A stretch of DNA of 64,000 nt from Nitrospirota bacterium (lineage in GTDB: Bacteria; Nitrospirota; Thermodesulfovibrionia; UBA6902): positions 33,854 through 97,853 of the forward strand of contig JACQZF010000048.1 in NCBI GenBank assembly GCA_016213945.1, read 5' to 3'. The position numbers were made by a program, and so were the translations under genes. Positions 3,679 to 51,440 of this stretch are shown in pieces. The notes below the pieces were generated by a model that was given only the letters and a program-made list of their open reading frames with translations, was not told where the DNA came from and did not search any database. Numbering within the stretch: position 1 is the first letter of the stretch; every line of letters begins with the position of its first letter.

Positions 3679-3698
3679 ATTATCTATATTTCTTGGCT

Positions 3699-3755: not shown

Positions 3756-3803
3756 ATCATTCGGTAACTTCCGCGCTTTTGCTCTTCTGCGCTATTGAAC
3801 TTT

Positions 3804-11123: not shown

Positions 11124-14048
11124 TCAAAACAACTGACTCTTCACCTTCTGATGTGTGAGCTTTGCGAATTCCATAATGTCTTTAATTGATGCTCCCTTAT
11201 CCCTCAGACTATAAAAAGTGTTTTCACCAAGCAGCGCATAGTTCCACTCGCACTCCATTCTGTCATCTGGTTTCAGATCATTAATTTTATTGAGCCAATC
11301 CAAAGCAGCAAGTTCTTTTTGCCGCACGTTGGCATCGTTCAAATCTTTGGTTGCCTTTGTTTCGACGAGGTAGATTGATGAATTCACCTTTACGATAAAG
11401 TCCGGATAATAAGACGACAGCATACCGTCGTTGCGGATATAATTTAAGTGGGCGAAATCATGATAATTCTCATTGATCTTCACGAAGCTGTTAACCAGAG
11501 AATCGCTGTCACAGAAGAGCATGAATTTTCTCTCTAATTCTCCTTTGTTTGAAGGGTAAGGAAGTTTCTCATATATTGTCTTTGTAATATCGAGAGAATA
11601 ATTTTCACGCATCTTCAATTCATTTACTTCAGAAAAGTATTTCTTGATTACAACCGCCTCTTCAACATCGATATTGTTCTGCATATCATAAATAATCTGG
11701 CTGAGTTCTTTCACGATATGCTGGATAATGCCTGCCTTTGAAAGCATCAGGACACGCCAGTTGTTGTCCTTAAACGGATCAAAGGTCTCATTGAACAGGC
11801 GGTTTCGAATAAAGTCGTCAACAACCTTTATGAGAGATGCATTATTTATTTGCATTACAGGATAATCCTTCATCGTTCTCTGACTGACTTTGACGAGAGT
11901 GCTGGTAATCACTTTAATGATTTTCGCCATCAATTCGTTATAACTTTTGGCGGTGAATAGGTCGCCTGTTACTTTGTAATCTCCAAAACGGGTCTTAACG
12001 GTTATTTCCTCTGAAACAAAAATCTCCTCTTTGGGAACCATCGCCTTGAGTTTATCCAGTTGATACCAGTCAACTCCTGCAAAATATTTTGTGGATGGCT
12101 CCATTACCTGCAAGGTCTCCTCTCTGTCCCTAATAACAATAGGCCAATAAAGATCATAGTCTTTATAGTTGCTTTTCAATCCGACCTTTATGATATCTCC
12201 GAGGATGCTTTCCCGATCTTCAGGCAAATCATGCGTTTCAGCGATAGAACCTTCCTTAACAAGTTCATCATAAAATTCGATAAAGGCAGGGTGCTCAACA
12301 ATACTCAGAATATCGAGATAATTTGACGGCTCTTCTTTTCTTTGTAAAAGCTTGATCCTGTTCTCAGTCTTTATCTCCTGATAATCCGGTTCGCGCCACA
12401 TGAGGCGCAGACCTCTGCCGATGATCTGTTCAAGAAGGATCGGGGCCTGCGTTGACCGCAACGGAACGATAACACAGATATTGCTTACATCAAAACCTTC
12501 CCGAAGCATCAGGACAGATACAATGACCTTCGGGCTGGAATGATTATCTATGTTAAAAAGCCGCTGTTTAACTTTCCCCCATTCCTTTGCAGGTATTGAG
12601 CCTTTCTTGTCTGAATCTATCTGAACAACATCTTCTTCGCCAAGCCCTTCGTTGTCAGCAAGAAACTGCGTCACAAAAGGAGAAACCTTTGTATCCTCGC
12701 ATATCACCAGCATCTTTGGATGCTTGTCTGACATTCCAGATGTATCAGAAGTTAAAGTCACAAACTGTTCTTCCAGTATCATTAATTTCTGCAAGCCTGC
12801 CCTGAGCATGAGCTTCTGCCCGTCAGAAAGACCGACCACTGTATTCCCTTCACGGACAGCTTTGAAATCAAGCTCCATTGTGGCAATCTCCTTACGCTTA
12901 TCAAGAGTAATTGTCTTCACAAGTCCCTGATGAATGGCTGTCTTAAGATCAAAGTCCACGACAATATGAGGGAAGAAATGTTTCGTCCTTTTCTGTCCGC
13001 TTCCGGTCACATCATAGGGAGTTGCTGAAAAATCAATCTGGATAAAACTTCTGCCTTTGCCTTCGGCAATTTTGTTCAGCGATTTCTGCCATTCAACTTC
13101 AGAGACGATACCGGCCTTCTTTGTTTCATGAATGTGGTGCGCCTCGTCATTAAAGACGACCATATTCTCAAGTCCTGCGAGATATTCAATCTCACCCCCG
13201 CTCAAATACTGATTATCGAGAGTTTCGAGGGAATGTCCTGTTGACGTGCCGGGCGTGATCGGGAATATTTCCTTTACCGCCTTTGAAGGGTCTTCCAATG
13301 GAGCTGTCTCAGTGTATTCCTCTTCTTCAACTCCTGACAAGAGATGCCAATTGGTAATGGCGATCATTCCGTCACCGGTAATCTTCTTTCCTATCTCTTC
13401 TTTTCTAACAACATTGGATTGGATAAAGCCAAAGAGTGTTTCTTTATATGCAGAAGGGATGAACAAGTCCTCGAACTTTTTGAAGTCCGATGTGGCAAAG
13501 TTCCTTGTACCGTCCTGTCCTTCCTTGCCCAGATAAGCGTCCAGAAGTCGTTCATATACAATTAAACCCGGCGCTACGATTAAAAACCTTTGGGAATAAA
13601 GACCGCTTGGCGATTCTTCATGTCTTGCATTGAGATATTGCCATATCAAGAGAGCATTCAGCACCCATGTCTTGCCAGTGCCTGTAGCCATCTTGATGCA
13701 GTATTTTGGATGGCTGAATTTGTCTTTTTTGAGATAGGACAGATCCATCTCGGCAGTAATGTCACTGCTAACTGAGGAATACATATCGAACACAGACTCT
13801 GCCTTCAAAATTTCATGAGTATAGATTGTATTCAGGATTGCCTGTCTCTGTCCTTCGTGAAAGTTGACTGTCCTTGCGTCACAGAAGGGACCGGAGAACC
13901 AGAACCTGAGCAGGTCTTGCGTAACCGGCGTAGTTTTGCTGATGAAGCTGCCGTTTTCCCATTCGCTGATTACCAGCGCTGAGAGTTCTTTAGCAAATTT
14001 CAATGGTATGTCGCGCGTGCCTGTGTTAAGAGCAATACTCATAATCAA
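11124..14048 (-). CDS. res: Type III restriction enzyme Res subunit (SF2 helicase plus C-terminal PD-(D/E)xK endonuclease)
   Basis: Walker A MATGTGKT, DEAH box VVFNDEAHH, and a C-terminal ...YLVETKATKD endonuclease-type motif. Confidence 0.85.
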   Translation of the reverse strand: MIMSIALNTGTRDIPLKFAKELSALVISEWENGSFISKTTPVTQDLLRFWFSGPFCDARTVNFHEGQRQAILNTIYTHEILKAESVFDMYSSVSSDITAEMDLSYLKKDKFSHPKYCIKMATGTGKTWVLNALLIWQYLNARHEESPSGLYSQRFLIVAPGLIVYERLLDAYLGKEGQDGTRNFATSDFKKFEDLFIPSAYKETLFGFIQSNVVRKEEIGKKITGDGMIAITNWHLLSGVEEEEYTETAPLEDPSKAVKEIFPITPGTSTGHSLETLDNQYLSGGEIEYLAGLENMVVFNDEAHHIHETKKAGIVSEVEWQKSLNKIAEGKGRSFIQIDFSATPYDVTGSGQKRTKHFFPHIVVDFDLKTAIHQGLVKTITLDKRKEIATMELDFKAVREGNTVVGLSDGQKLMLRAGLQKLMILEEQFVTLTSDTSGMSDKHPKMLVICEDTKVSPFVTQFLADNEGLGEEDVVQIDSDKKGSIPAKEWGKVKQRLFNIDNHSSPKVIVSVLMLREGFDVSNICVIVPLRSTQAPILLEQIIGRGLRLMWREPDYQEIKTENRIKLLQRKEEPSNYLDILSIVEHPAFIEFYDELVKEGSIAETHDLPEDRESILGDIIKVGLKSNYKDYDLYWPIVIRDREETLQVMEPSTKYFAGVDWYQLDKLKAMVPKEEIFVSEEITVKTRFGDYKVTGDLFTAKSYNELMAKIIKVITSTLVKVSQRTMKDYPVMQINNASLIKVVDDFIRNRLFNETFDPFKDNNWRVLMLSKAGIIQHIVKELSQIIYDMQNNIDVEEAVVIKKYFSEVNELKMRENYSLDITKTIYEKLPYPSNKGELERKFMLFCDSDSLVNSFVKINENYHDFAHLNYIRNDGMLSSYYPDFIVKVNSSIYLVETKATKDLNDANVRQKELAALDWLNKINDLKPDDRMECEWNYALLGENTFYSLRDKGASIKDIMEFAKLTHQKVKSQLF

Positions 14049-15040: not shown

Positions 15041-16972
15041 TTACCCCACTTCCTCCACTACCACGCTTTCAAACCCAAACACATCAACCGCCTTCACGCA
15101 GATCCTGCGTTTGCCTTTGACTTTTGGTGATAAGATGCTGACTTCTTTCACGACCCTGAAGGGGTCTGCATCATTGCCAACATTGCTTCTGTAATCCTGC
15201 CATTTACTGCGGAAGGTTTCGCCGTCGTAGTCAGGGTCTACGCTCCAGTATTCAATAAGCGCAAGAGGGTCATGCGCGATGATGTCCTGCAATTTTTCCT
15301 TGTTTGCGTCATCAAGGGGCAGGGCGTCAGGAGAGAGCAGGATGTAATTGTCCAGTTCGATAGTTATTTCATCAATATCGGATGAATAGTTTTTCAGAAC
15401 AGGCTTTTTGATGGAGAGATACTGAAGCGATGAGAAGCGTATCTTGCCGCTTTTCAGGAGGCTTTCATAACTGGACTTTGTCTTGAGCTTGTCGAGAAGA
15501 TCAGGAGGAATAACCAGCACCTCAAGTTTATCGTCGTTGAAGTTCTTGATGACCGTTGCAATATCAAAAACAAAGTTCCAGCCGAGGACTACCACCTTGT
15601 TCCACCCGCCAAGAAAGGACTCCCTCAATTCCTGCGCCTTCTTCAATGTTGCATAGCCGGTCAGTTTTGAAGGGGAATCAACCATGACGAGGGTGCGTGA
15701 ATTTTTGATATATCCAAGGTTGCGATTTGGATTCTGCTCATCAGGGAAGGGTAATGCGCCGTAGAGGTTGAGGACGACCTGCGACAAATCACCGATGCGC
15801 CTGAACAGTCGGCTTGAGGTAAAGGCCTCTTTCTGGTAATCCCCGATTGATTGGTAGAGGAATGGCTTCGCCTCCTGATCTATAAGCCGCTGCCTCGTAA
15901 TCATGATAGCAGGCTTGCCGATGTCGGACATTATCCACCTGCGGCCATTTTTTTCGGCAACTGTTCCGGTAGAGCCGGAGCCGGAGAAGAAGTCGGCGAT
16001 GATGGAATTTTCGTTGGAAGAACTTTTGATGATGCGCTCAAATAGTTTTTCAGGTTTTTGTGTCGTATAGTCAACTCTTTCTTTTGCAACTGGATTGACT
16101 GGCGGAATATCGTCCCAGACCGAATCAACAATATCGCCTTCAACGTCATCTAAATATATTTTTCTTGTACCGCCGCCTGTGGGGTTCACATCCGTTCTGC
16201 ATAATCTTCCTGTTTCATCAGGCTTGAACCTTTTCAAATACTGCTCATTATGCGGTTTGTATTGTGTATTCCAAATGTATGATGCAGACTTCGTGTAAGA
16301 ATAAATCACATCGTGCTTTTGAGGAAACTTTTTTGCCGTAGCTCGCTTAAAACCAAAATATGTCCACACAATTTCATTTCTGAAATTTTCTTTCCCAAAC
16401 ACATCATCCATCAACACCTTCACATAATGCCCGACATGCCAATCAAGATGGACATAGATTGATCCCTGCTCGCTCAGCAATTCTCTCATCAATGCAAGTC
16501 TCGGATACATCATTCGCAGATAACTGACTGTCCCGTCTTTCCATGTGTCGGAATAGGCAAACTGCTCCAGTACGGTCGGCTTCTGTTCGATGGTGGTTCC
16601 GGGCAGGGTGATCTTTGTCCGGTAATCAGCTTTGCTGTCAAAAGGCGGGTCATTATAGATAAGATCAACCTTGCCGCGCATGGAAGGCAAACCGGTTGCC
16701 GGATCACCGGCAAGCAATGCCTGCATCACAAGCAGGTTGTCGCCATAAATAAGCCTGTTGTGCCATTCCTGCTCTGAAATTTCCTTCAGTTGCCCGCGAT
16801 AAAGCCCGGACTTGTCCTTGGATGGCAGCACATACTCATTGGTCTGCAAGGTAAGCTTATTGGTCCCGGACAACCTCTCAAGTATCCGCTCCACTTCCTT
16901 CTTACCCTCGGCAACAATCTTTGATAGTTGGTCGATTAAAGATTCAGGCATGATAAATATATGTCCCTTCAA
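15041..16972 (-). CDS. mod: Type III R-M Mod subunit (beta-class N6-adenine DNA methyltransferase)
   Basis: Motif IV (DLIYNDPPF) precedes motif I (FFSGSGSTG), which is the beta-class order. It lies in the same transcriptional direction as res. Confidence 0.85.
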
Positions 16973-22803: not shown

Positions 22804-24065
22804 TTAATGCTCGTAAGAGGTAATGTCCCTTTCTTTTGTTTCTTTCAAAAAAAGCTCTCCAATGACTACTGTCGCAATCGAAACAACGATCGGATACCAT
22901 AGTCCGTAATAGATATCCCCTGTTGCCGCTACCATCGCCGTAGCTGTAAGCGGCAGCAAACCGCCGAACCAGCCATTGCCTATGTGATACGGCAAAGACA
23001 TGGATGTGTAGCGAATCCGGGTCGGGAACAACTCGACCAGGAACGCCGCGATCGGGCCATACACCATGGTGACGTAGATAACGAAGATAAACAGGATGAG
23101 CAGGACCATAGGATAGTTGATCTTGCTCTTGTCAGCTTCAGCAGGATAGCCCTGGGCTTTCAGCGCCTCTTTTACTGCCTGCTCGTTCCAGCCGACGATC
23201 TCGGTCGTTCCAATTGTTGTTACAACATCCTTGCCCTCCACTCCAGGGAGCGTAGTGAAGCTTAATCCCTGCTTGGTCATGTAGTCCTTAGCACGGTCAC
23301 AGTTGCTGAACTTGCTCCACGGGCCGACAAAAATGTGGAAGTTGCAATCGGATTCGTTTGCGGCAACAGAGATCTGCGTCCTGTTCTGAAAATCCTCCAG
23401 CGCCGGGTTGACATAGTGCGTCAGAGCCTTGAACATCGGGAAGTAGGTCACTGCCGCTATCAAACAGCCGACCAGGATGATCTTGAGCCGGCCTATCTTG
23501 TCCGACAGTTTGCCGAAGACGATGAAAAAGGGTGTCCCGAGGAGCAGAGACGCACCTATCAGTGTGTAAGTTGTAAGGAAATCGAGCTTCAGCGTGATCC
23601 GCCGTATTCTCCGCCAAGCGCAAGTCCCTGAAGCAGACGCAGCGTCACAAGAATAACCGGGGCGAACCAGCCGACCGAATCGAAAGTAGGCAGAAGGCCG
23701 ACCCCGAAAGTCGCAAGACCCATAACGACGATTGTTACTAAAAATGTGTATTTGCGGCCTACCAGATCACCGATGCGGCCAAACACGAGCGCGCCGAAAG
23801 GACGCACAAGAAAGCCCGCGGCGTATGTTGCGAATGCCGAAAGGAGTGCTGCCGTTTCGTTACCTTTCGGAAAAAACAGCGCGGCAAAGAACGGCGCCAG
23901 CGTTGCGTACAGGTAAAAGTCGTACCACTCGAATACCGTTCCAACCGATGAAGCGACGATAACCAGCTTTTCATCTTTGGATATCGGAGCTTTTTCTGCT
24001 ACTTGATCTGTTGCTATAGTTGTGCTCATTGAGCAATACCTCCTTTTTATTTTGTTGTTTGGCAA
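22804..24065 (-). pseudogene. MFS transporter of the metabolite:H+ symporter (MHS) family, interrupted by a frameshift/stop near 23589-23625 and carrying a ~100 aa hydrophilic insertion
   Basis: The N-terminal ORF (23589..24065) ends ...LGGEYGGSR*. The continuing frame reads ...LDFLTTYTLIGASLLLGTPFFIVFGKLSDKIGR... then ...ELFPTRIRYTSMSL... Both are MHS hallmarks, but they lie in different frames. Confidence 0.5.
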
Positions 24066-24130: not shown

Positions 24131-24568
24131 TTATTTCTTATTGCGGCGCGCCCTGAGTGCGCCGGCTTTTCTTCCTGTTGTCAGCACCAGTCCGGAATAT
24201 CCTGACATTGACGGATGCGTTTCCAGAATTCCGAATAATATTTCTTTACTAATGAGATAGCATGTAGTATCTTCAACTGCTGAGACCCTGATTTTTGATC
24301 CAGCCTTGTCCCGGAGACAGCCGAATGAGTTGCCTTCCCGCCTGTATTCTGTGGCGTCTTTTTCACTCTCTTTAAACTTTACCCTTACATACCCTTTTTT
24401 AATAATCTGAAGATATTCGCAAGGCGGATTTTCTTCATTAATGATCACGGTATCTTTCGGATAGAATTCCACTATGACGCCTCCGGCAATTTGTCTTAAA
24501 GCGATATCGTCAAGTTCCTGAAATGGTTGAAGCTTACTGAGAAATTCTTTTACTTCTTCGATGGTCAT
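24131..24568 (-). CDS. Cyclic nucleotide-binding domain protein (the ORF could extend to 24679)
   Basis: cNMP-binding beta-barrel (…FGILETHP…) with a Gly-rich loop. The start is assigned to the internal Met of MTIEEVKEF. Confidence 0.55.
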   Translation of the reverse strand: MTIEEVKEFLSKLQPFQELDDIALRQIAGGVIVEFYPKDTVIINEENPPCEYLQIIKKGYVRVKFKESEKDATEYRREGNSFGCLRDKAGSKIRVSAVEDTTCYLISKEILFGILETHPSMSGYSGLVLTTGRKAGALRARRNKK

Positions 24569-24889
24569 CTTTATGATGACAAAGGAAGAGCAAATCATAT
24601 GCCTGAAAAAGGCAGAACCGTATTGACTGCTTAACTCATTGGAATAAAAAAGAATAAATGGGAATAAGGTGCTTTCCAAGATACGGGAAATGCTTAAACA
24701 AAAAGATGGAATGATACTTTATATAGCACAGCAAGAGGAAATTCTAAATAATCTTTATTTTTCATAATAGTTACGATGGTTACTTTTTGTAATGCAAATT
24801 TGTACTTGACGTAGAGATAAGTAACATGCCCAAACTGTTTTTGTCTTGATAGTTAATTAATACCATCAAAACTAAAATGACCTGGTCCT

Positions 24890-42387: not shown

Positions 42388-43611
42388 TCAATTCTTTATA
42401 TTTACGTTCCTCACTCCGGATGGCCTCCATGCCGGGGATATAACGCCTGGCGGTTTTGCCTGTTCGAGATAAGACGCCCATGTGACAGTGAACTCTCCGT
42501 GCTTGTCATTGATGGAATCAACCGCGTTGAGGATGGATTTCTCCTTTGCCCTGTGATCAAATAACGCCATCTGGTCATTATCGTCCCTCTTTAATTGTGA
42601 GATGCTGACGCCGACCAATCTGACCTTGTCACGAAGGCGTATTGAATTGAGAATGCCCAATGCGCAGTTGTAAATTTCACGGGTAATGTTTGTGTGCTCG
42701 GACAGAGTAGTCTGCTTTGTGAAGGTCTCAAAATCAGGATACCGTATGGTGAGGGTGACCTTCTTCCCTGCAAAGCCGTACTTCCTTGCCCGCCGTCCAA
42801 CCATTGCGCTTAACTTTAAAATCTGCGCCTCTATCTGCTTCCTGTTTGAAATATCCTGAGGTAATGTCATGCTGTGACCGATGGATTTCGGATCTTCTTC
42901 TTTGACGATGAGAGGCCTGTGGCAGATCCCCTGCCCCATGAGTTTCAATGTCTCCCCGACGATGCCGAATCTGTTTCTCAATAAACCTGCGGGCGCGCTG
43001 CCAAGCTCGCCGCAGGTTTTTATCCCAAGCCCGGCAAGTCTTCGCTCAATTGACGGACCGATGCCCCATAATTCCTTCACGGGCAGATCTTTGAGCACGG
43101 ATGGAATATCTTCTTCTTTAAACCAACGTAAACCGTCCGGCTTTGCAATGTCGCTGGCAAGTTTTGCCATAAGAATATTCGGGGCGATGCCGACCGTGCA
43201 ATTGATGCCGAACTGTTTTTTGACTTCCTCCTTAATTGAAAGTCCGATAGCCTCAGCCCCCCCGAACAAATGATGCGTTGTCGTCACATCAAGGAAGGCT
43301 TCATCGATGGAGTAGACCTCAATATCAGGCGTGAACCTGCTGTAGACCTTGGAAAGCTCCCTGCAGGTGTGAGTATATTTTTCACTATCTCCAACAACGA
43401 AGATGATATGCGGACACAACTTCTTCGCCTCATAAATGTTCATCCCCGTCTTAACGCCGAATTTCCTCGCCTCATACGAACGCGTGGTGACGACCGTCCT
43501 GCCGCCGGAGCCGATGACCGCAACCGGTTTGCCCCTGAGCTTCGGATTCGCCTGCTGCTCAACAGAGGCAAAGAAGGCGTCCATGTCTATGCAGAGAATG
43601 ATGGTTTTCAT
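42388..43611 (-). CDS. dinB: DNA polymerase IV
   Basis: MKTIILCIDMDAFFASVEQ... with a strong RBS (AAGGAGGGG) before the Met. The 43638 TTG extension is probably not used. Confidence 0.85.
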   Translation of the reverse strand: MKTIILCIDMDAFFASVEQQANPKLRGKPVAVIGSGGRTVVTTRSYEARKFGVKTGMNIYEAKKLCPHIIFVVGDSEKYTHTCRELSKVYSRFTPDIEVYSIDEAFLDVTTTHHLFGGAEAIGLSIKEEVKKQFGINCTVGIAPNILMAKLASDIAKPDGLRWFKEEDIPSVLKDLPVKELWGIGPSIERRLAGLGIKTCGELGSAPAGLLRNRFGIVGETLKLMGQGICHRPLIVKEEDPKSIGHSMTLPQDISNRKQIEAQILKLSAMVGRRARKYGFAGKKVTLTIRYPDFETFTKQTTLSEHTNITREIYNCALGILNSIRLRDKVRLVGVSISQLKRDDNDQMALFDHRAKEKSILNAVDSINDKHGEFTVTWASYLEQAKPPGVISPAWRPSGVRNVNIKN

Positions 43612-43684
43612 TACAGGTTGAAATCCCCTCCTTAACAAGGAGGGGCAGGGGAGGTTTTTTCATGGGATCGTTCTTGAAGTTTTA

Positions 43685-43969
43685 TTAATTAAATTCCCCG
43701 TCCTGCTCTCCCCGTGTGTCTGCGTGGTATTCGGAACTGTCTGACGATTCCTTACCGCGCTGTTCAATGATAATGCCGAGCAATTCAGTCATGAATTCCT
43801 TGTCACTGGTCATTCTTGTTACTACACCGTCTCTTTCTTTTTTTGGCAATTCCTTTAACGCCCTCCAGAACACTTCTGGTACTGCTTCATTAATTGTCAT
43901 GGTCCCTGCCTCCTTATGAAAAGTACAAAAGTATAAAACAAAGAAATTAAAGTCCTTGCTCTTTTGCAC
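43685..43969 (-). CDS. Hypothetical small protein in the lexA-dinB operon (likely starts at the internal Met of MTINEAV)
   Basis: ORF between lexA and dinB. Confidence 0.35.
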   Translation of the reverse strand: MQKSKDFNFFVLYFCTFHKEAGTMTINEAVPEVFWRALKELPKKERDGVVTRMTSDKEFMTELLGIIIEQRGKESSDSSEYHADTRGEQDGEFN

Positions 43970-43988: not shown

Positions 43989-44231
43989 TTATGTCTCCAC
44001 GCCCTCCAGTCTCCATATCAGTGACGTTGCGTCGAAAGCAAGCTCATACAGGGTCTTGCCGTCTGTCACGGAAAAATGGTGAACCAGGTTTTGTCCATCG
44101 GTTGTTTTCCACATGTATGTGATTTCCTTAACCTCAAAAGTCTTCCCCAACCATTTAAACTTGACCGGCCGTATCCTGTAACGCGGCCCGAATGAGACGA
44201 TGACGCTTATGTGTTCACTGATCTGCATCAC
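43989..44231 (-). CDS. Hypothetical small protein (80 aa), overlaps the lexA stop by 4 nt
   Basis: The ATGA-type overlap suggests translational coupling to lexA. Confidence 0.4.
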   Translation of the reverse strand: MMQISEHISVIVSFGPRYRIRPVKFKWLGKTFEVKEITYMWKTTDGQNLVHHFSVTDGKTLYELAFDATSLIWRLEGVET

Positions 44232-44824
44232 ATCTTCCTTATGACGCCCATGACTTTTCCCATGATGGTTACTTCATCTGCGTTGTATGTCGCGGGCTTC
44301 ATAGTTTTGTTTTCCGGTCTTAAAATTATCTTTCCCTTTTCTCTGAAGACCCTCTTTACGGTAGCTTCGTCTTCTATGAGAGCGACCCCGATCTCGCCAT
44401 TCCTTATAGTGCTTTGAGGCCTTACCACTATAAAGTCGCCGTCGAGTATCCCCGCATCTATCATGCTGTCGCCTGTTACTTTTAGGGAGAAAGCGTCCTC
44501 TGCCGGGAAAAGTGTTTTATCAATAAAGATGTGCGAGTCGATCTCCTCCACCGCTAATATCGGCCTTCCTGCCCTTATCCTTCCAGCCACAGGTGCCATA
44601 ATTCCCTCTGATTGCCTGAGCCCCAATATCTCGATGCCCCTTGATTTGGCGGGGTTTATCTTTATAAATCCTTTCCGCTCGATTGCCTTCAGGTGCATCC
44701 TCGCGGCAGCCCACAGGAACCCGAAATGCTCGCCTATTTCCCTGACCGTAGGAGGGTAGCCGTGCTTTTGCGCGTACTCTTTAAGGAAGTCCAGGACCTT
44801 TTTCTGTCTGCCGGTTAATTCCAT
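44228..44824 (-). CDS. lexA: LexA repressor
   Basis: N-terminal wHTH (LTGRQKKVLDFL...YPPTVREIGE), the Ala-Gly cleavage site region, and an S24 peptidase Ser/Lys dyad. Confidence 0.9.
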   Translation of the reverse strand: MELTGRQKKVLDFLKEYAQKHGYPPTVREIGEHFGFLWAAARMHLKAIERKGFIKINPAKSRGIEILGLRQSEGIMAPVAGRIRAGRPILAVEEIDSHIFIDKTLFPAEDAFSLKVTGDSMIDAGILDGDFIVVRPQSTIRNGEIGVALIEDEATVKRVFREKGKIILRPENKTMKPATYNADEVTIMGKVMGVIRKM

Positions 44825-44900: not shown

Positions 44901-45764
44901 ATGCCGATTCGATTAAAATCTGAATTCTCACTCAAGGAAACCCTCGACAAATTCTACAATGAATATGATTTCAAGGAACGGATCAAACACGACCCGATTG
45001 AGCTTCCTCACAGGTATTCCAGACCTGAAGATATAGAAGTCGCGGGCTTTATCGCGTCATGTTTTGCTTATGGAAGGGTCGGCCTTTTCAAGCCTGTGAT
45101 AGAAAAAATTCTCAAGCCCGGCGGGAAACACCCCGCAAGCTTTATCAGGGATTTCGATCTGCAAAGAGATAAGAAGTATCTTTTGGGAATCAGCTACAGG
45201 TTCAATAAGGAGAAGGACGTCCTCTGCCTCATATATATTTTGAATCAGACGCTGGGTGAATTCGGTTCGCTGAAAAGTCTTTTCTATCATTACCACAACC
45301 CCTCTGTGTCCCCCGAAGACATCGGGCCTGCGCTTACTGAATTTGTAAATTATTTTTTAAGCATTGACACGTCGCCTGTTTACGGAAGAAATATTAAGCC
45401 CGATGGGTTGAAGCAGTTTTTCCCTTCTCCTCGAAACGGCAGCGCGTGCAAGCGCGTAAACCTTTTTCTGAGATGGATGGTAAGGAGAAAAGATATCGAC
45501 TTCGGCATCTGGAATAAGATCCTGCCTTCTAAATTAATCATTCCTCTTGATGTCCACATCGCAAGGATTTCAAGATGCCTCGGCCTGACAAAGAGAAAAG
45601 CATCCGACTGGAAGACGGCAAAAGAGATAACCGGGGCATTGAGAAAGTTTGACCCCGAGGACCCGCTCAAATACGATTTTGCCCTCTGTCATTACGGAAT
45701 ATCGAAATCATGCAGAGGTGAAAAATTCAAAGACGCTTGTTCTGCCTGCGCAATCCTGTCCTGA
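44901..45764 (+). CDS. TIGR02757/DUF2400 family protein (HhH-GPD-like)
   Basis: 287 aa containing an HhH-GPD-like motif IPLDVHIARISRCLGL. Confidence 0.45.
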   Translation: MPIRLKSEFSLKETLDKFYNEYDFKERIKHDPIELPHRYSRPEDIEVAGFIASCFAYGRVGLFKPVIEKILKPGGKHPASFIRDFDLQRDKKYLLGISYRFNKEKDVLCLIYILNQTLGEFGSLKSLFYHYHNPSVSPEDIGPALTEFVNYFLSIDTSPVYGRNIKPDGLKQFFPSPRNGSACKRVNLFLRWMVRRKDIDFGIWNKILPSKLIIPLDVHIARISRCLGLTKRKASDWKTAKEITGALRKFDPEDPLKYDFALCHYGISKSCRGEKFKDACSACAILS

Positions 45765-45784
45765 AAAATCACCTGCTTCCAACC

Positions 45785-45812
45785 GCTTGTGTTCTATGTG
45801 TTCTATGTTGCC
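45785..45812. repeat. TGTTCTATG x~3 tandem repeat downstream of the DUF2400 gene
   Basis: gcttgtgttctatgtgttctatgttgcc. Confidence 0.6.
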
Positions 45813-45975
45813 ATCATGTTTTTTGTGTGATATAAGTTACATATGACATAAATCATATGACGAAAATCATTTCATAATGTATAACATCAGGTGTATAAAA
45901 AATATGGAATTTAAATTTAACTATTCTCCTGAATTCAGGTAATCAGTATAAACAAATTAAAAAGGAGGTTACTCT

Positions 45976-46647
45976 ATGAGTACAAATGCCGCAAAAAATC
46001 TGTTCATATACGGCAGCCTGCTCTGCTTTATCGTCCTTATTGTGCTCACCATTGACACGATGGGAACACTGGACAAGAGGGCACCTGTAATTACAGACAA
46101 AGTAGACGCCGGCAAAAAGGTCTGGCACAAATATGACTGTATTGGCTGTCATACCATTTTGGGGAATGGTTCATACTTCGCCCCTGACATGACAAAGGCG
46201 GTTGAACGCAAGCCGAAAGGGTATTTGAAAAAATTTATAATGGACCCAAGGACGATAAAAGCTGATTCAGCTATGCCGGTACTTGGGATATCTGAACAAG
46301 AAGCTGACGACCTGATAGCATTCCTTGACTGGATTGCTAAAGTAGACACTAATGGCTGGCCGCCGAAACCTATCCTCGTAGCGGCTGCAGCAGGCAAGGC
46401 GGCAACTCCGGGACAGGTGCTTTTCCAGCAAAATGACTGCTCGGCATGTCATCAGATCCAGGGATTAGGCGGCACAGCAGGGCCTGATCTTACACGCATA
46501 GGTCTAAAACAGGCTGATATCGAGTGGCATATCAAGCATCTCAAAAACCCTGAATCTGTTGTACCGAAATCCGCGATGCCGGACTTTGCTCATTTAAACG
46601 ATGAGGAATTGAAGGCTCTGGCAGAGTACATGGTTACATTGAAATAA
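45976..46647 (+). CDS. norC: Nitric-oxide reductase cytochrome c subunit NorC fused to a second C-terminal monohaem cytochrome c domain
   Basis: An N-terminal TM and CIGCHTILGNGSYFAPD...VDTNGWPP match NorC. A second CSACHQ haem site lies in a ~75 aa C-terminal extension. Confidence 0.7.
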   Translation: MSTNAAKNLFIYGSLLCFIVLIVLTIDTMGTLDKRAPVITDKVDAGKKVWHKYDCIGCHTILGNGSYFAPDMTKAVERKPKGYLKKFIMDPRTIKADSAMPVLGISEQEADDLIAFLDWIAKVDTNGWPPKPILVAAAAGKAATPGQVLFQQNDCSACHQIQGLGGTAGPDLTRIGLKQADIEWHIKHLKNPESVVPKSAMPDFAHLNDEELKALAEYMVTLK

Positions 46648-46664
46648 CTACATCGGAGGAAATA

Positions 46665-48032
46665 ATGAAATATCAAAGTCAGAAAATAGCAGTCAATTTT
46701 TACACGGCTGCATTGCTGCTTTTTGCCGTGCAAGTTGTAGTAGGCATAATTGCGGCGCTGCAATTTATGTGGCCGGATTTCTTTATCCTTAACTTCAACA
46801 CCATTCGCACATTGCATATTAATGCGCTGGTTGTTTGGTTGCTGATGGGAATGATGGGCGCGACATATTATGTAGTCACTGAGGAATCGGAAACAGAGTT
46901 GTGGAGCATTCCGCTGGCGCAGCTCCAATTCTGGGCAACCGTCATTGCTGTAACCGCTGTTGTAGTCGGCTATATTGTGATGGGTGTGTTCCCACAGGCT
47001 AATATAGAAGTGTTCGGCACACAGTTGCTAAACGAAGGCCGGGAATACATTGAAGCGCCGAGATGGGCGGACATACTAATCGTCGTATCAGTGCTACTGT
47101 TTTTGTTTAACTGCCTCATGACGGTTTTCAAAACAAAAAAGTTTACCGCGGTCCAGGGAGTGCTGCTTGGCGGCCTGACCTTTCTGGCGCTTATGTATCT
47201 TCCGGGAATGTTTTATACAAAGAGCATGGTGAAAGACCAGTTCTGGTGGTGGTGGGTTGTGCATCTCTGGGTTGAAGGTTCGTGGGAATTAATTGCAGCG
47301 GCGCTTCTGGCATTTATGCTGCATAAACTCCTTGGGGCTGACGTAAAGGTGTTAGCCAAATGGATGTATATCGAGACAGGGCTTGTGCTCTTCACAGGCA
47401 TACTCGGCCTCGGTCACCATTACTACTGGATAGGCACACCGAAATACTGGCTCTGGGTCGGCGGTTTCTTCAGCTCGCTTGAGCCGATACCATTACTGCT
47501 GATGGTGTGGGACGCCTTCAGGACCACACGCGAAACACGCGTAGCTGTGCCAAATAAAATTGGATTGTACCTGACCGTTGCTCACGCAATATTTAATTTT
47601 GTCGGCGCGGGCCTCTGGGGAGTGATACATACACTTCCGCAAGTGAATAAATGGACCCACGGCACGCAGTTGACAACAGCACACGGGCACCTTGCCTTTT
47701 ACGGGGCATATGTACTTTTAATCGTTGCAATGATCTACGTTACCCTGCCGTCAATAAGGGGCGTAAAGGAATTCAACCAGTCAAAGGGTTATCTCGCCTT
47801 CTGGTGGATGACGATCTCAATGGTTTTCATAGTGATAACAATAACAGGCGCCGGAATGGTCCAGACATATCTTGAAAGGCTTCTCGGTCTTGATTATGTA
47901 ACGGTAAAAGCCAGCTACAATCTTTGGTTCTGGATATTCAGGGCGATCTTCGGGGTGGGCTTTCTTGTCGGCGTGTTGATACTTGTTGCTGATTTTTTCA
48001 CTCTCGGCAAAAAACCTTTACCCGCTAAATAA
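46665..48032 (+). CDS. norB: Nitric-oxide reductase large subunit NorB (cNOR, haem-copper oxidase superfamily)
   Basis: Motifs FWWWWVVHLWVEGSWEL, GLGHHYYWIG and THGTQLTTAHGHLAFYGAY. Confidence 0.85.
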   Translation: MKYQSQKIAVNFYTAALLLFAVQVVVGIIAALQFMWPDFFILNFNTIRTLHINALVVWLLMGMMGATYYVVTEESETELWSIPLAQLQFWATVIAVTAVVVGYIVMGVFPQANIEVFGTQLLNEGREYIEAPRWADILIVVSVLLFLFNCLMTVFKTKKFTAVQGVLLGGLTFLALMYLPGMFYTKSMVKDQFWWWWVVHLWVEGSWELIAAALLAFMLHKLLGADVKVLAKWMYIETGLVLFTGILGLGHHYYWIGTPKYWLWVGGFFSSLEPIPLLLMVWDAFRTTRETRVAVPNKIGLYLTVAHAIFNFVGAGLWGVIHTLPQVNKWTHGTQLTTAHGHLAFYGAYVLLIVAMIYVTLPSIRGVKEFNQSKGYLAFWWMTISMVFIVITITGAGMVQTYLERLLGLDYVTVKASYNLWFWIFRAIFGVGFLVGVLILVADFFTLGKKPLPAK

Positions 48033-48068
48033 ATGAAATTCTAAACCCATCCCCCCCTCAAAGAAAAA

Positions 48069-48090
48069 GGTCAGGCAGCAATGCCTGGCC
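48069..48090 (+). terminator. Possible stem-loop after norB (GGTCAGGCA-gcaa-TGCCTGGCC)
   Basis: Imperfect inverted repeat with a weak T tract. Confidence 0.25.
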
Positions 48091-48145
48091 TCCCCCTTCC
48101 TGTTTAGTAAAGCTATAAGCTAAAAGCTATTTTGTAGAATGCGGC

Positions 48146-48688
48146 CTAAAACCAGTACTCTGGATACTTCCTGTTTTTAGAGAGGTTATTTATAAGGAGA
48201 GCAATTATTAAAAGTATAAACGCGCCGAGTCCCGCAGGGATAAAGGCGTAAAGAAAGCCGAGGTCGTGTATCTTTTTGCCGCCGATAACGGCGATCAAAG
48301 CGGTTGCGCCGCCCGGCGGGTGAAGTGTCTTTGTCAGAAGCATGGCCGCAATGGCAAGCGATACAGCTAATGATGATGCCATCCAGATTGTGTCACCAAA
48401 GAGATTATAGCAGGCAACTCCTGCAAGGCCGGATATTACGTGACCGCCGATCAGATTTCTCGGCTGGGCGAGAGGGCTCTTTATCGCGCCATATGCAAGC
48501 ACTGCTGATGCGCCGAAGGAACCGATTAAAAGAGTTGAATCCCTCGGCTCGAAATAATTAATAGACAGGTACCCGCATATACCGATCCCCGCGGCAGAGC
48601 CGAGCCCTGACCAGAGTATTTCCGTGAATGAAACGCCGGGCGGGCTCTGCGCCCCGCCCTTCATCTTTGCGATGTATTTCCTGACCAT
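48146..48688 (-). CDS. HPP family membrane protein (family includes nitrite transporters)
   Basis: 180 aa, 4 TM, with Gly-rich HPP-type helices. Confidence 0.5.
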   Translation of the reverse strand: MVRKYIAKMKGGAQSPPGVSFTEILWSGLGSAAGIGICGYLSINYFEPRDSTLLIGSFGASAVLAYGAIKSPLAQPRNLIGGHVISGLAGVACYNLFGDTIWMASSLAVSLAIAAMLLTKTLHPPGGATALIAVIGGKKIHDLGFLYAFIPAGLGAFILLIIALLINNLSKNRKYPEYWF

Positions 48689-49323
48689 TATTGGGATCCC
48701 CCGATAGCCCTCACGATATCCGCGCGTGAGATAATCCCTATGAGCCTGTTTTCATCATCAACTACCGGAAGCCTCTTGATCCTTTGTTCATCCAGGATCC
48801 TTGCCGCTTCTTTTATGTCGTCATCAGCTTTTGCGGTAATTGCAGGAGAGGCCATGATGTCTTTAATTTTATTGCCTTCCCTGCGTTCAGGCAGAGGCTC
48901 TCCGAATATGTGTCTTAAGATATCTTTAAACGTGTGACCTTTCTTCATTCCGGCAGTGGACAGAATATCCGCTTCAGAGACAACGCCGACGACAATGTTT
49001 TCTTCATCTACAACTGGCAGCCCGCTTATGTTATGTTCGGAGAGAAGCCTCGCCGCCTCATGGAAATCATCCTCCTTCTTGACGGCGATTACGATTCTGG
49101 TCATTATTTCGCCGACGGTGGTCCTGGCAGCAAGCCTCTGCCGCGCATGTTTCAACGCTATTTCGTAAATCTTCCTCAGGTCTTCCTCTGTGACATCGAT
49201 ATAAGTTTTCATCTCACTGAGTGCGGCCCTTAAGTCTTCTTCAGAAATATTGCAGTATTTTTGCGAGTCGTCCATAACACTATTATCATTGAAGCAAAGC
49301 AATTTTCTTATGACGAAAATCAT
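48688..49323 (-). CDS. CBS-domain pair protein
   Basis: Two CBS motifs (…NISGLPVVDEE…, …IKRLPVVDDEN…). Confidence 0.7.
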   Translation of the reverse strand: MIFVIRKLLCFNDNSVMDDSQKYCNISEEDLRAALSEMKTYIDVTEEDLRKIYEIALKHARQRLAARTTVGEIMTRIVIAVKKEDDFHEAARLLSEHNISGLPVVDEENIVVGVVSEADILSTAGMKKGHTFKDILRHIFGEPLPERREGNKIKDIMASPAITAKADDDIKEAARILDEQRIKRLPVVDDENRLIGIISRADIVRAIGGSQ

Positions 49324-49375
49324 ATTTATGATTTAGCTCATGGCATCGCTTCTTCTGCAAATGGTATAAAAAAAC

Positions 49376-50344
49376 ATGAAGCTTACCGTTTACAGGAGAA
49401 CCACCCAGGCAGCGTTCATACTTTTCATACTCCTCATGCCGGTCTTAAACATCTTCCACTATGACGTGGATACGAAGGAGTTGATAGTCTTCGGCAATGT
49501 ATGGGGCCTCGGCCTGCCTGAAGAGTTTTACACTGACCGCAGTATCACAGGGTCGCTTCATGTAGCTTTGCAGTTTTTCCTCAAGGCAATACTGCCGTGG
49601 ATCTTAATTTTATCCGTATTCCCGCTTCTCGGCACGCTTACCGGGAGATTCTTCTGCGGATGGTTCTGCCCGGAGGGGGCAGTATTCGAGCTTTTCGATT
49701 TCTTCACGGTAAAGATCTTCGGCAGAAGAAGCCTGTTCACAAAAAAGCCCAATGACCCCGGAGAACCTGCAAGTAACCGGATGCCCTACATAATCCTTTC
49801 TCTATTCTGCATGATGGCCATTCCGCTTTTTACCGGTATTATGCTTACCGGTTATTTTGTGGCCCCCCGGACAGTGTGGGGGCAGATAATGAACTGGGAT
49901 TTTACATTTGGCGTGAAGGCAGGGATTATCGGGGTTTCCATATATCTGTTCATCTCTGCAATGATCGTCCGTCATGCACTGTGTAAATATGTATGCGGCG
50001 CGGGACTAATGCAAATGTTATTCGGATGGGCCAGCCCGGTTTCATTAAGAATAAAAGCAGACCCCGCAAAACTGGGCGCGTGCACGGATTGCAAGCAATG
50101 CGAAAAGGTATGCTTTATGAATGTAAAACCGAGGCTGTTCAGAAAAGATATCAATTGCGTAAATTGCGGCGCATGTATCTCTGCGTGCACTAAAGAGCTG
50201 GGCAAAGAGAAATGTGTATTCAGTTTTGCGCAATCGAGGCATTGCCCCCTGCCTTCAAAAGAATCCTTCAAGAAACAGGAAAACACTCCGCCGATTCTCA
50301 ACAATCCAATCAGAGATGATAACTGTGAAAAAACCTTCCGTTAA
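49376..50344 (+). CDS. NapH/CcoG/NosR-like membrane-bound polyferredoxin
   Basis: CGWFCPEGA motif, TM helices, and C-terminal 2x[4Fe-4S] (CTDCKQCEKVC / CVNCGACISAC). Confidence 0.6.
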   Translation: MKLTVYRRTTQAAFILFILLMPVLNIFHYDVDTKELIVFGNVWGLGLPEEFYTDRSITGSLHVALQFFLKAILPWILILSVFPLLGTLTGRFFCGWFCPEGAVFELFDFFTVKIFGRRSLFTKKPNDPGEPASNRMPYIILSLFCMMAIPLFTGIMLTGYFVAPRTVWGQIMNWDFTFGVKAGIIGVSIYLFISAMIVRHALCKYVCGAGLMQMLFGWASPVSLRIKADPAKLGACTDCKQCEKVCFMNVKPRLFRKDINCVNCGACISACTKELGKEKCVFSFAQSRHCPLPSKESFKKQENTPPILNNPIRDDNCEKTFR

Positions 50345-50506
50345 GATGCTCATTTTGCCGCATACTTTATAGAATCTTCCTTCACCTTGCAAATTTTCAT
50401 TAGCTTGATTTATGAATGCAGAATAATTTTTTATTAGACAACAGCCACGAACTTTGTACAAAATGAGCTTTATTTTATAAAACAGACGCAATAAGGAGGA
50501 CTTAAC

Positions 50507-50800
50507 ATGGCTTTCGTTTTCTTACGGTATAAGATTGAAAATTACAAAAAATGGAAAACCGCTTTTAATGACGCTTTTGAGATGCGGAAGAAGGGCGGCG
50601 AAAAAAGTTATAAAGTTTTCAGGAGCGCTGACAACCCGAATGAACTGGCTGTTCTCCTTGAATGGAGCAGTATCAGCAACGCCAGAAGGTTTATAAACTC
50701 AAAAGAGGTTCAGCAGTGCATGGCAAAAGCCGGGATAGTAGGAAAACGCGAAATTGCTTTTTTTAAAGAAGCTCCCCAGCCGGAACAATCAGGACATTAA
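50507..50800 (+). CDS. Small ABM/Dabb-like alpha+beta barrel protein (hypothetical)
   Basis: 97 aa; ...ELAVLLEWSSISNARRF... fits an ABM-like pattern. Confidence 0.3.
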   Translation: MAFVFLRYKIENYKKWKTAFNDAFEMRKKGGEKSYKVFRSADNPNELAVLLEWSSISNARRFINSKEVQQCMAKAGIVGKREIAFFKEAPQPEQSGH

Positions 50801-50834
50801 GACTCAGACATGTTACTGATTTTATAAATCTGCC

Positions 50835-51440
50835 TTACAATACGATGATAAAACTTTCTCTCCGGTGAAAGTCTGCCTGCGGCCCGGGATGGATCAACGC
50901 CCAGTAAGCCAATTTACCGTCCCTTGTTTTTATGACCGCGCAGATTCCGGCCTTCAATGCTTGATCTGCCCGGATGATCTTATTCAAGTCGACTTCAACA
51001 GAAAGCAGCAAGGCGCCGGACTTCCTCCGGACGCTGAAAGGGAGTGATGTAAAGGCATGTTCCTCATGCATCCCTTGTCGATAGGATATGAACCTATAGA
51101 CATTCCAGTGCCCGGCAGGAGAAAGATTGAATTCCCAATATTGATCGGATCTTTCAGCGCCGAGAAAGAACTCAAAACAGGTATCCCCCCAAAGAGCGTT
51201 TTTACGGCATGGCACATCTGCCGCCGCAGGGACCAGAAGGTCCGCAACGGGGCCATGACATGCATAGCTGATGGCAAGTGTATTGGAACGCCGGGCGGTT
51301 TTGCCGGTGATCTTTAATTTTGGCAGAAGGCCGGTTGATGAAAATGGCTTCAGGGAAAAGTGGTTAATCATTGCTGGATTATAACAAATTGCATCACAGG
51401 CCCAGATGATTATTTGGCAGTCAGACCGCGGGTATCGCAA
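50835..51440 (-). CDS. Hypothetical protein, possibly DOMON/CBM9-like
   Basis: ORF; only weak motif resemblance. Confidence 0.25.
   Translation of the reverse strand: MRYPRSDCQIIIWACDAICYNPAMINHFSLKPFSSTGLLPKLKITGKTARRSNTLAISYACHGPVADLLVPAAADVPCRKNALWGDTCFEFFLGAERSDQYWEFNLSPAGHWNVYRFISYRQGMHEEHAFTSLPFSVRRKSGALLLSVEVDLNKIIRADQALKAGICAVIKTRDGKLAYWALIHPGPQADFHRRESFIIVL

Follow-up and report, generated by a model that had tools for sequence, protein, structure and literature searches.

A nitric oxide reductase cluster with a two-haem NorC and putatively co-regulated neighbours in a Nitrospirota bacterium

The 64,000-nucleotide stretch analysed here (positions 33,854 to 97,853 of contig JACQZF010000048.1, assembly GCA_016213945.1, from a Nitrospirota bacterium of the lineage Thermodesulfovibrionia; hereafter the window, numbered from its first letter) harbors a gene cluster for a cytochrome c-dependent nitric oxide (NO) reductase (cNOR). 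Enzymes of this type are the main biological source of N2O, and the textbook cNOR has a one-haem NorC, needs the accessory proteins NorQ and NorD (NorQD) and is fed by the bc1 complex via soluble cytochromes. According to the list of open reading frames (ORFs), the forward strand of the window carries norC (45976-46647, 223 aa, with CIGCH at residues 55-59 and CSACH at 155-159) and norB (46665-48032, 455 aa, containing HLWVEG and GHHYY), followed on the reverse strand by genes for an HPP-family membrane protein (48146-48688, 180 aa, PF04982) and a stand-alone CBS-pair protein assigned by Pfam (48688-49323, 211 aa as listed), the start of the former overlapping the stop of the latter (ATGA), and again on the forward strand by a gene for a polyferredoxin (49376-50344, 322 aa, CGWFCPEG at residues 94-101). 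An earlier note, made from the sequence of this DNA, had described these five ORFs; all of them exist exactly at the coordinates it gave, and their identities are correct, with Pfam and solved-structure matches far beyond chance. Between the convergent norB and HPP genes lies a GC-rich hairpin (48072-48087) that is terminator-like on the minus strand, where CAGGCATTGCTGCCTG is followed by a T-rich tail. Pfam scans of 46 window ORFs revealed no other nitrogen-oxide genes in the 64 kb, nir and nos included, and an Rfam scan (E<=1) found no regulatory RNA in 45500-50900.

A scan with one genome per species recovered 28 related genome loci for comparison, which bear labels such as L002 and L017, while L029 and L031 denote loci of the Thermodesulfobacteriota clade and L033 that of Dissulfurispira thermophila; taxonomy beyond Nitrospirota is taken from the labels of a few metagenome-assembled genomes (MAGs). 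In tblastn searches with the window proteins, norC and norB are adjacent in 27/27 loci, the 28th being cut by a contig end, and the two genes are also adjacent in loci of other clades and in Dissulfurispira thermophila. The polyferredoxin gene lies on the same strand just 3' of norB in 17/28 loci, HPP and CBS genes are found near nor in about 7/28 with varying positions and orientations, and a DUF2400 gene occurs upstream in 12/28. The inverted insertion of CBS-HPP between norB and the polyferredoxin gene is an arrangement common to the window and L002.

The 223-aa protein opens with a NorC domain (residues 1-131, 45976-46368) that comprises a transmembrane anchor (residues 8-26), a haem c site C55-x-x-C58-H59 (46138-46152) with Met100 as axial ligand, and the Ca-site residues Gly65 and Tyr67, which we take to be the counterparts of the Ca2+-binding Gly71 and Tyr73 in 3O0R. 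Residues 4-131 match residues 8-143 of the 146 residues of Pseudomonas aeruginosa NorC (3o0r_C, E 1.3e-24), and C55, C58, H59, Met100, Gly65 and Tyr67 are invariant in an alignment of distant homologues with the P. aeruginosa protein. The domain ends at WPPKP (residue 131), the same point at which P. aeruginosa NorC ends. An Ala/Gly/Pro-rich linker of variable length among homologues (residues 132-143, 46369-46404) then leads to a C-terminal class I cytochrome c domain (residues 144-223, 46405-46647), which contains the extra haem site C155-S-A-C158-H159 (46438-46452) and the axial Met201-Pro202; all of these features are on the forward strand. The earlier note had described the protein as NorC-like over about 150 residues with an additional C-terminal haem domain and had proposed an alignment with characterised NorC as a check; this alignment bears out the additional domain and places the boundary at residue 131 rather than near 150. 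Because it has 223 residues and two CxxCH motifs, and is thus not a monohaem NorC of about 150 aa, the protein is filed as a variant of cNOR.

Residues 146-223 find separate matches to cytochromes c552, c551 and c555, to cbb3 subunits and to the cytochrome c domain of caa3 subunit II. Pfam assigns the C-terminal domain to Cytochrom_C (3.5e-25) and Cytochrome_CBB3 (1e-21), and the complete protein shows two cytochrome c stretches together with NorB_cytochrome_c-like and FixO matches. C155, C158, H159, Met201 and Pro202 are invariant in 42/42 sequences, the Cys, His and Met residues of the extra domain are also invariant in 18/18 distant homologues (mutual identity 30-50%), and about 45 residues separate its CxxCH motif from the invariant Met-Pro. 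In an AlphaFold2 single-chain model (mean predicted local distance difference test score, pLDDT, 86; linker block 54), the extra domain forms helices at residues 145-152, 182-195 and 209-221 with pLDDT of 82-95, consistent with a small all-alpha cytochrome c fold. Foldseek searches with this model returned the solved NorC chains 3o0r_C and 4xyd_B as top matches (TM 0.67-0.71), with caa3 subunit II, Paracoccus c552, c551 and SorU among the class I cytochromes that ranked next. The distal ligand context of a class I cytochrome c, on whose presence the earlier note had made its proposal depend, is therefore found in the invariant Met201-Pro202 and the all-alpha fold, and the extra domain looks like a ligand-complete, fully functional class I cytochrome c as far as sequence and model can tell.

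The second haem is not an oddity of this genome but the norm in its clade, an outcome that the earlier note had named as one that would refute its proposal. Two-haem NorC is present in 28/28 loci, all from Nitrospirota MAGs except for one Thermodesulfobacteriota MAG, and a word-indexed search yielded proteins of 214-232 aa that share the same set of four Pfam matches and fall into at least 120 clusters (90% identity); every named one belongs to Nitrospirota/Thermodesulfovibrionia, including the cultured Dissulfurispira thermophila. An exhaustive search among 50%-identity representatives added about 25-30 further clusters with a CxxCH motif near residue 55, WPP around position 130 and another CxxCH at about 150-215. 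The profile of these further clusters led to a second large clade of 231-aa proteins, whose named members come from Thermodesulfobacteriota and 'Deltaproteobacteria' MAGs, so that the trait extends to other phyla as well. Given its presence in 28/28 loci and at least 120 clusters, the second haem is therefore a family trait rather than a peculiarity of the genome studied here.

The prevalence of norBC in Thermodesulfovibrionia is already known (PMC11033732), and in a bioreactor norBC ranked among the most highly transcribed genes of Ca. Nitrobium versatile, which is assigned to the genus Dissulfurispira; the authors suggested that this organism couples NO reduction to the oxidation of sulfide (PMC8906906). 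In one sentence, Schwartz et al. (2022) mention that several Nitrospirae genomes and one Geobacteraceae genome contain homologues of a c551/552-like domain within ORFs that are annotated as NO reductase and similar to norC (PMC8756737); the cytochrome domain in question is the 'C1' domain that is fused to NirS/NirK in Chloroflexi, and some of the related loci compared here stem from the same SURF metagenome set. A literature search for diheme (di-heme) NorC gave no description beyond this passing remark. The enzyme class itself is thus known and its two-haem NorC has been noticed once in passing, never analysed or characterised; what seems to be new is the breadth of its distribution, its link to the NorB signature described below, the operator and the putatively co-regulated polyferredoxin.

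NorB was recognised in the earlier note from HLWVEG and GHHYY, and this call holds along the entire protein: residues 1-444 align to residues 8-458 of P. aeruginosa NorB (3o0r_B, E 1.3e-107), indicating full-length homology, and Roseobacter NorB matches with E 3e-104, whereas quinol-dependent NO reductases (qNORs) reach 1.6e-43 and worse and cbb3 CcoN only 1e-6. The 455-aa protein, which Pfam assigns to COX1, has no N-terminal qNOR extension. It contains the ligands of haem b, haem b3 and FeB (H51, H340, H342, H200, H251 and H252), E204 at FeB, and the further conserved glutamates E208, E273, E127 and E130; the six His ligands and the glutamates corresponding to P. aeruginosa E211, E215, E280, E135 and E138 are kept in the window protein and in 26-27/27 relatives. 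NorBC is thus by sequence a cNOR whose catalytic machinery is intact, with predicted NO reductase activity and a predicted non-haem iron in the binuclear site.

In a survey of cNORs, 34/259 were without norQD, and such enzymes have lost the acidic pair at which NorD docks, have replaced I244 (P. aeruginosa numbering), often by E, and carry a hydrophilic residue, 'often H', in place of F290 (PMC12067857). Window NorB and 27/27 relatives have E at the I244 position (E237) and D at the F290 position (D283), as do the Thermodesulfobacteriota-clade and Dissulfurispira proteins, and the acidic pair is not conserved, its second residue being mostly K in the relatives. Clustering of all ORFs in the 28 loci and the window, together with the Pfam scans of the window ORFs, identified no norQ, norD or norE; norQ and norD are absent within +/-8 kb of nor in the 28 loci, and MoxR-type or VWA genes occur neither in the window nor among the conserved neighbours of related and other-clade loci. 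From the E237/D283 signature and the lack of a MoxR-type or VWA gene, the enzyme is therefore assigned to the cNORs that do without NorQD.

Compared with the canonical cNORs of P. aeruginosa, Paracoccus denitrificans and Roseobacter denitrificans (3O0R, 4XYD), the window encodes the same full-length NorB with all ligands and glutamates, the same NorC transmembrane anchor, CxxCH motif, axial Met and Ca-site Gly/Tyr, and the same norC-norB order. However, canonical NorC has about 146-150 aa and one haem, whereas window NorC has 223 aa and two haem c domains; norQ, norD, norE and norF are lacking, E and D replace I244 and F290, and the host is an anaerobic member of the Nitrospirota (Thermodesulfovibrionia) with no nir or nos in the window. 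With the cNORs that lack NorQD, such as Thermus thermophilus NorCBH (Appelgren & Adelroth 2025, PMC12067857), the window enzyme shares a cluster free of norQD, the loss of the acidic NorD-docking pair and hydrophilic residues at both 'K-pathway analogue' positions, with E at I244. It differs from them in that norH is missing, NorC is two-haem, the second position is D and not 'often H', and the accessory genes are others, here a polyferredoxin gene and in relatives a gene for a CopD-cytochrome b5 protein. A class I cytochrome c attached to a haem-bearing small subunit, presumably as the point of electron entry, is also found in caa3 subunit II (2YEV_B), cbb3 CcoP and PRK14486, and 2yev_B and cbb3 subunits are among the sequence and fold matches of window NorC; unlike in these fusions, the partner here is the NorC of an NO reductase, and the attachment is C-terminal through a short flexible linker.

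The polyferredoxin has four transmembrane helices by hydropathy (residues 9-27, 67-85, 139-157 and 180-198) and the motifs CX3CP (94-98), CX3CG (203-207) and CxxCxxCxxxC (236-246 and 261-271). The distribution of positive charges fits an N-in topology in which all four motifs are predicted to be cytoplasmic. On this hydropathy-based topology the layout would be that of NapH, with four N-in helices, CX3CP as first motif and both [4Fe-4S] motifs, except that the second motif is CX3CG and not CX3CP. Pfam detects Fer4_5 and Fer4_18 and no further domain, and both families of the earlier designation as NapH/CcoG-like are matched below their curated cut-offs. For NapH the scores are 60.3 bits against a cut-off of 213 (TIGR02163) and 56 bits against 234 (PRK09477), with alignments that run end to end (residues 53-274 on 43-249 of 255, and 2-275 on 23-273 of 286). 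The best NCBIfam match is CcoG (TIGR02745, 70 bits, cut-off 316.7), whose best stretch covers only profile positions 56-189 of 435; with 322 aa, the protein lacks the CcoG architecture of about 470 aa and its C-terminal domain. The Fer4_5 membrane domain, which includes CGWFCP, and the pair of [4Fe-4S] motifs towards the C-terminus are features that it has in common with NapH/NosH/MauN and CcoG/RdxA/FixG, but the window protein falls below every cut-off, has CX3CG, has no NapG/NosG partner and lies in a nor context. No related solved structure was found at E<=1, and neither a NapG-like periplasmic ferredoxin nor a nap or nos context was detected in the window (Pfam scans) or among the conserved neighbours. 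The protein is 100% identical to that of a Nitrospirae MAG; its orthologues are named '4Fe-4S binding protein', 'polyferredoxin' or 'NapH', and all named ones are from Nitrospirota. A small cupin gene follows the polyferredoxin gene in seven loci, including three of L007, L012, L014 and L017, and in these four loci ORFs resembling a Fur-family regulator and the ferrous iron transporter FeoB were recognised by eye further 3' of the polyferredoxin gene, some 4-7 kb beyond norC. The iron-uptake genes could point to a connection with FeB supply or simply to synteny within the clade.

The HPP protein matches PF04982 (TM_HPP) over its full length (202 bits, cut-off 27.2, E 5e-60), and the 211-aa protein contains two CBS repeats (E 6e-34). 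The families named in the earlier note are therefore correct, while the role in nitrite handling that it suggested was drawn from the family name only and the linkage to nor is limited to the roughly seven loci mentioned above. According to the passage of PMC7438415 that cites Maeda et al. 2014, nitrite transport has been shown for one cyanobacterial/chloroplast member of the HPP family. By analogy, HPP-CBS would most simply form a channel for nitrite or anions that is gated by a ligand and is an optional part of the module.

Other genes accompany two-haem norCB in relatives. Among the partners of this cNOR variant, the one with the widest distribution is a protein of about 305 aa (CopD-cyt b5), which combines a signal peptide and an N-terminal CxxCH motif with a CopD membrane domain and, at its C-terminus, a cytochrome b5-like domain, and which recurs beside or in the vicinity of two-haem norCB in three separate clades (Nitrospirota, a Thermodesulfobacteriota MAG and another MAG). 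Its gene lies directly 3' of norB in L018, L019, L024 and L026 and further away in L021, L022, L023 and L025, and is also found at L033:10147-11064 (Dissulfurispira thermophila), L036:9124-10077, L029:12910-13836 and L031:15206-16123; the window gave no tblastn match to it. In the 231-aa Thermodesulfobacteriota clade, a DUF4213/DUF364 gene comes right after norB (L029:10193-11050, L031:10309-11139). This family is described in Pfam as 'putative heavy-metal chelation' and may be another candidate metal-insertion factor for cNORs without NorQD.

The genes of the cluster are preceded by copies of one FNR-type operator, a 16-bp palindrome TATGAT-N4-ATCATA (TATGA-N6-TCATA), which occurs as a pair upstream of norC and as a second pair between the divergent CBS and polyferredoxin genes. 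The tandem boxes upstream of norC are TATGACATAAATCATA (45842-45857, 23.1 bits) and TATGACGAAAATCATT (45856-45871, 16.7 bits), those of the divergent region are TATGACGAAAATCATA (49309-49324, 19.6 bits) and TATGATTTAGCTCATG (49327-49342, 18.4 bits), and the 14-mer ATGACGAAAATCAT is found at 45857 and again at 49310. The scores refer to a position weight matrix (PWM) that was built from the related loci only, with the window's own sites left out. It has exactly four matches above 10 bits in the 64-kb window, all of at least 16.7 bits, against 0.2 matches expected at >=14 bits from surrogate sequences. The operator consensus is TATGATTTAAATCATA, with positions 2-5 and 12-15 conserved to at least 98% and the TGA-N6-TCA geometry present. 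In 358 kb of related loci, nearly all matches of >=14 bits lie upstream of norC, the polyferredoxin gene or CBS-HPP. A site precedes norC in 27/28 loci, in many of them duplicated in tandem with a 14-bp spacing, and a site precedes the polyferredoxin gene in all loci that have this gene, even where norB directly precedes it; CBS-HPP has its own site in L017 and a divergently shared site in the window, L002, L024 and L025. Dissulfurispira thermophila likewise has sites before norC and before the polyferredoxin gene. A perfect copy, TATGATCTAAATCATA (L018:11176-11191, 23.9 bits), stands 3' of the CopD-cyt b5 gene of L018 at the usual place of the polyferredoxin gene, and as speD, pgk and gap come next instead, this lone operator looks like a relic of gene loss.

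The distance between box and gene points to the kind of promoter involved. From box start to the polyferredoxin ATG there are 49 nt in 14-16/18 loci, which places the box centre 41.5 bp from the ATG; in relatives, a TATAAT-like element lies 6-8 nt 5' of the ATG and a Shine-Dalgarno sequence is lacking, as it is in the window gene, which has TATAAA 6 nt 5' of its ATG. The -35 region is poor on inspection. The fixed 41.5-bp spacing, the -10-like element and the missing Shine-Dalgarno sequence together suggest a class II promoter activated by a CRP/FNR-family protein, from which the polyferredoxin mRNA is probably transcribed without a leader. In the window it is the second box (49327-49342) that has this spacing to the polyferredoxin gene, and the first box (49309-49324) is centred 41.5 bp from an ATG at codon 17 (M17) of the listed CBS ORF, whose annotated start (49323) falls inside the operator box. 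Since CBS homologues have about 194-207 aa and the promoter geometry also fits, the true CBS start is probably M17 (ATG at 49275, 195 aa), with a -10-like GATAAT at 49287-49282 upstream of it, and the CBS transcript is possibly leaderless as well; this reassignment is tentative, the spacing of box to CBS start being different in L002 and L017. For norC, a putative -10 hexamer TATAAA preceded by TG can be read at 45894-45899 (+), and if TGTATAAA at 45892-45899 serves as the norC -10 element, the centre of the second box would lie near -42.5.

As the same FNR-type box stands before norCB, the polyferredoxin gene and CBS-HPP, we infer that these genes form one regulon under a CRP/FNR-family activator of the DNR/NnrR/HcpR kind. 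The shared operator and the frequent position of the polyferredoxin gene directly 3' of norB both agree with the proposal in the earlier note that the flanking genes belong with nor. In the DNR, NnrR and HcpR regulons (Rodionov et al. 2005, PMC1274295), a palindrome of FNR geometry is likewise found upstream of nor (DNR, CTTGATnnnnATCAAG), and the core of the window operator, TGAT-N4-ATCA, has this FNR/DNR geometry. HcpR regulons often include ferredoxin-like genes (PMC1274295). Differences from the published DNR, NnrR, HcpR and NsrR motifs lie in the outer bases, TATGAT rather than TTGAT, TTGAC, TGTGA or TTGCG, and differences from known NO-responsive CRP/FNR regulons in the apparently leaderless mRNA of one target. 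NsrR was rejected as first-choice regulator because its half-site spacing, ATGyAT-N5-ATrCAT (PMC1274295), is unlike the FNR geometry here and because the -41.5 position and the poor -35 element fit an activator. Another candidate, the cyclic-nucleotide (cNMP)-binding ORF of the window (24131-24679, reverse strand, 182 aa, TTG start), has its domain at residues 71-155 and no DNA-binding domain, and was set aside because it is too short for a helix-turn-helix domain.

Collectively, it is fairly probable that the cluster encodes an NO reductase of the subfamily without NorQD, in which the second, C-terminal cytochrome c of NorC serves as a tethered electron-entry site and the neighbouring genes are co-regulated. 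By analogy with the cytochrome c domains of caa3 subunit II and cbb3 CcoP, the extra haem would be reduced by something outside the norCB pair and would pass electrons to the haem c of the NorC domain, then to haem b and finally to haem b3/FeB. A CRP/FNR-family activator encoded outside the window would turn on the set jointly in response to NO or anoxia. Several points weigh against this interpretation. Haem attachment, redox potentials and the electron path of the two-haem NorC are all deduced, and neither the polyferredoxin, missing from 11/28 loci and from other clades, nor HPP-CBS, missing from about three quarters of the loci, is needed for a two-haem cNOR. The related loci are akin to one another, so that counts such as 27/28 overstate their independence. 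The window and the surroundings of the nor genes in the related loci yielded no regulator gene; in these loci the ORFs divergent from norC encode thioredoxin-reductase-like, ArgG, membrane, GYD, GGDEF-EAL and L,D-transpeptidase proteins and no transcription factor, and a repressor instead of an activator could bind the operator. In the two scanned Thermodesulfobacteriota-clade loci, L029 and L031, no operator was found upstream of norC, and the operator is therefore specific to the Nitrospirota lineage.

The alternatives concern mainly the polyferredoxin, presumably a co-induced accessory protein with cytoplasmic Fe-S clusters, whose role may be electron feed, as for NapH and NosH, or maturation and upkeep of the metal centre, as for CcoG. 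It is possible, if rather unlikely, that the polyferredoxin serves FeB in the manner of CcoG, as a factor for maturation or maintenance that replaces NorQD: its cytoplasmic Fe-S clusters would reduce the metal, pass it on to the FeB site or keep this site competent, and the extra haem of NorC would be unrelated to it. CcoG is the best NCBIfam match, and like CcoG the protein stands alone with cytoplasmic clusters and adjoins an enzyme of the haem-copper superfamily; its own operator copy would ensure co-induction, norQD is absent, NorB bears the corresponding signature, unknown chaperones have been considered possible for such enzymes (PMC12067857), and the slot after norB is taken in other clades by the putative metal-handling proteins CopD-cyt b5 or DUF4213/DUF364. 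However, the score is far under the cut-off (70 versus 317 bits), the C-terminal domain of CcoG is lacking, 11 of the 28 loci do without the gene, CcoG is a cupric reductase whereas a need for ferric reduction in the cytoplasm of a strict anaerobe is not obvious, and according to the proposal in PMC12067857, FeB enters such enzymes along a hydrophilic channel and needs no dedicated factor. It is unlikely that the polyferredoxin is instead a quinol dehydrogenase of the NapH/NosH type that reduces the extra haem, which would make the cluster a self-contained quinol:NO oxidoreductase independent of bc1. The Nap and epsilonproteobacterial Nos systems, in which NapGH and NosGH deliver electrons to N-oxide reductases of the periplasm, offer a precedent, and the end-to-end alignment with both NapH models, the NapH-like size, four-helix N-in topology and motif order, the synteny and the operator common to norCB and the polyferredoxin gene would all suit such a role. 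Against it stand the scores under the NapH cut-offs (60 versus 213 and 56 versus 234 bits), the CX3CG in place of the second CX3CP, the predicted cytoplasmic position of the redox motifs when the haem c domains are periplasmic, and the lack of a NapG-like periplasmic ferredoxin in the window or loci. As two-haem NorC is widespread without the polyferredoxin, the extra haem did not arise as an acceptor specific to this protein. The claim in the earlier note that the module has its own electron input is weakened by the cytoplasmic motifs, the missing NapG partner and the many two-haem loci that lack the gene, and a part in maturation like that of CcoG would be as good a fit.

Two further readings question the unity of the cluster or the identity of the enzyme. 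That the neighbours are unrelated to NO reduction and the extra haem domain is a neutral accretion is improbable and disfavoured: HPP-CBS is near nor in a minority of loci (about 7/28) with variable placement and the window holds no other N-oxide genes, but the shared operator is found nowhere else in the 64 kb, it is kept before each gene in relatives and at a fixed distance for the polyferredoxin gene, and the haem ligands of the fused domain are invariant across sequences that are 30-45% identical. It is hardly credible that the cluster encodes not an NO reductase but a cbb3-related oxygen reductase with a CcoN/CcoO-CcoP-like fusion. The C-terminal domain does match FixO/CcoO and CcoP models, and NCBIfam contains a 'CcoO/cytochrome c' fusion (PRK14486); however, NorB matches cNOR at 1e-107 and cbb3 CcoN at 1e-6, the FeB glutamate (HLWVEG) and the other cNOR glutamates are conserved, and the matches fall far short of the cut-offs set for the ccoN, ccoO and ccoP models.

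A more far-reaching scenario, which we regard as speculative and quite unlikely, is that the cluster is a self-sufficient, energy-conserving NO-respiration module for anaerobes without bc1, in which the polyferredoxin (in relatives, CopD-cyt b5) oxidises menaquinol or a cytoplasmic donor and feeds the tethered haem, and NorB is electrogenic via the E237/D283 'K-pathway analogue'. If true, NorB would take its protons from the cytoplasm, which would make this an electrogenic cNOR, unlike the textbook enzyme. In a variant of this scenario, the same accessory genes would constitute the unknown FeB-insertion system of cNORs without NorQD.

FeB insertion without NorQD has been named as an open question (PMC12067857), for which the polyferredoxin, CopD-cyt b5 and DUF364 are now candidates. 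The two-haem variant also offers a handle on the electron supply to cNOR in anaerobes that lack the usual donors, and it is abundant in Nitrospirota and Desulfobacterota of groundwater, sediment and the subsurface, which are usually counted as sulfur cyclers. The defined operator can be used to map the NO-responsive regulon in Thermodesulfovibrionia, and experiments are feasible because the cultured Dissulfurispira thermophila carries the same cluster, with its norC at 2,019,421-2,020,095 of AP022873.

Elsewhere in the window, a set of reverse-strand genes at 1345-6553 encodes a split, archaeal-type glutamate synthase, consisting of a GXGXG, Fer4_20 and pyridine-nucleotide oxidoreductase fusion (777 aa), a Fer4 and Glu_synthase protein (553 aa) and a third member of 369 aa without a Pfam match. 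A ResIII helicase/nuclease (974 aa, 11124-14048, reverse strand) and an N6/N4 DNA methylase (643 aa, 15041-16972, reverse strand) look like a type III restriction-modification system and lie in a region of lower local GC (0.41-0.44). Two adjacent reverse-strand ORFs (22804-23463 and 23589-24065) match the C- and N-terminal parts, respectively, of one major facilitator superfamily (MFS)/sugar-transporter family, and the pair probably represents one gene that is disrupted or was split by a frameshift in sequencing. Upstream of norC, a LexA-like ORF (44228-44824, reverse strand) and a DinB/Pol IV-like ORF (42388-43638, reverse strand), recognised by eye as an SOS-type pair, enclose two small ORFs without a Pfam match (43685-43969 and 43989-44231), and in L009, LexA and DinB genes sit between norB and the polyferredoxin gene.

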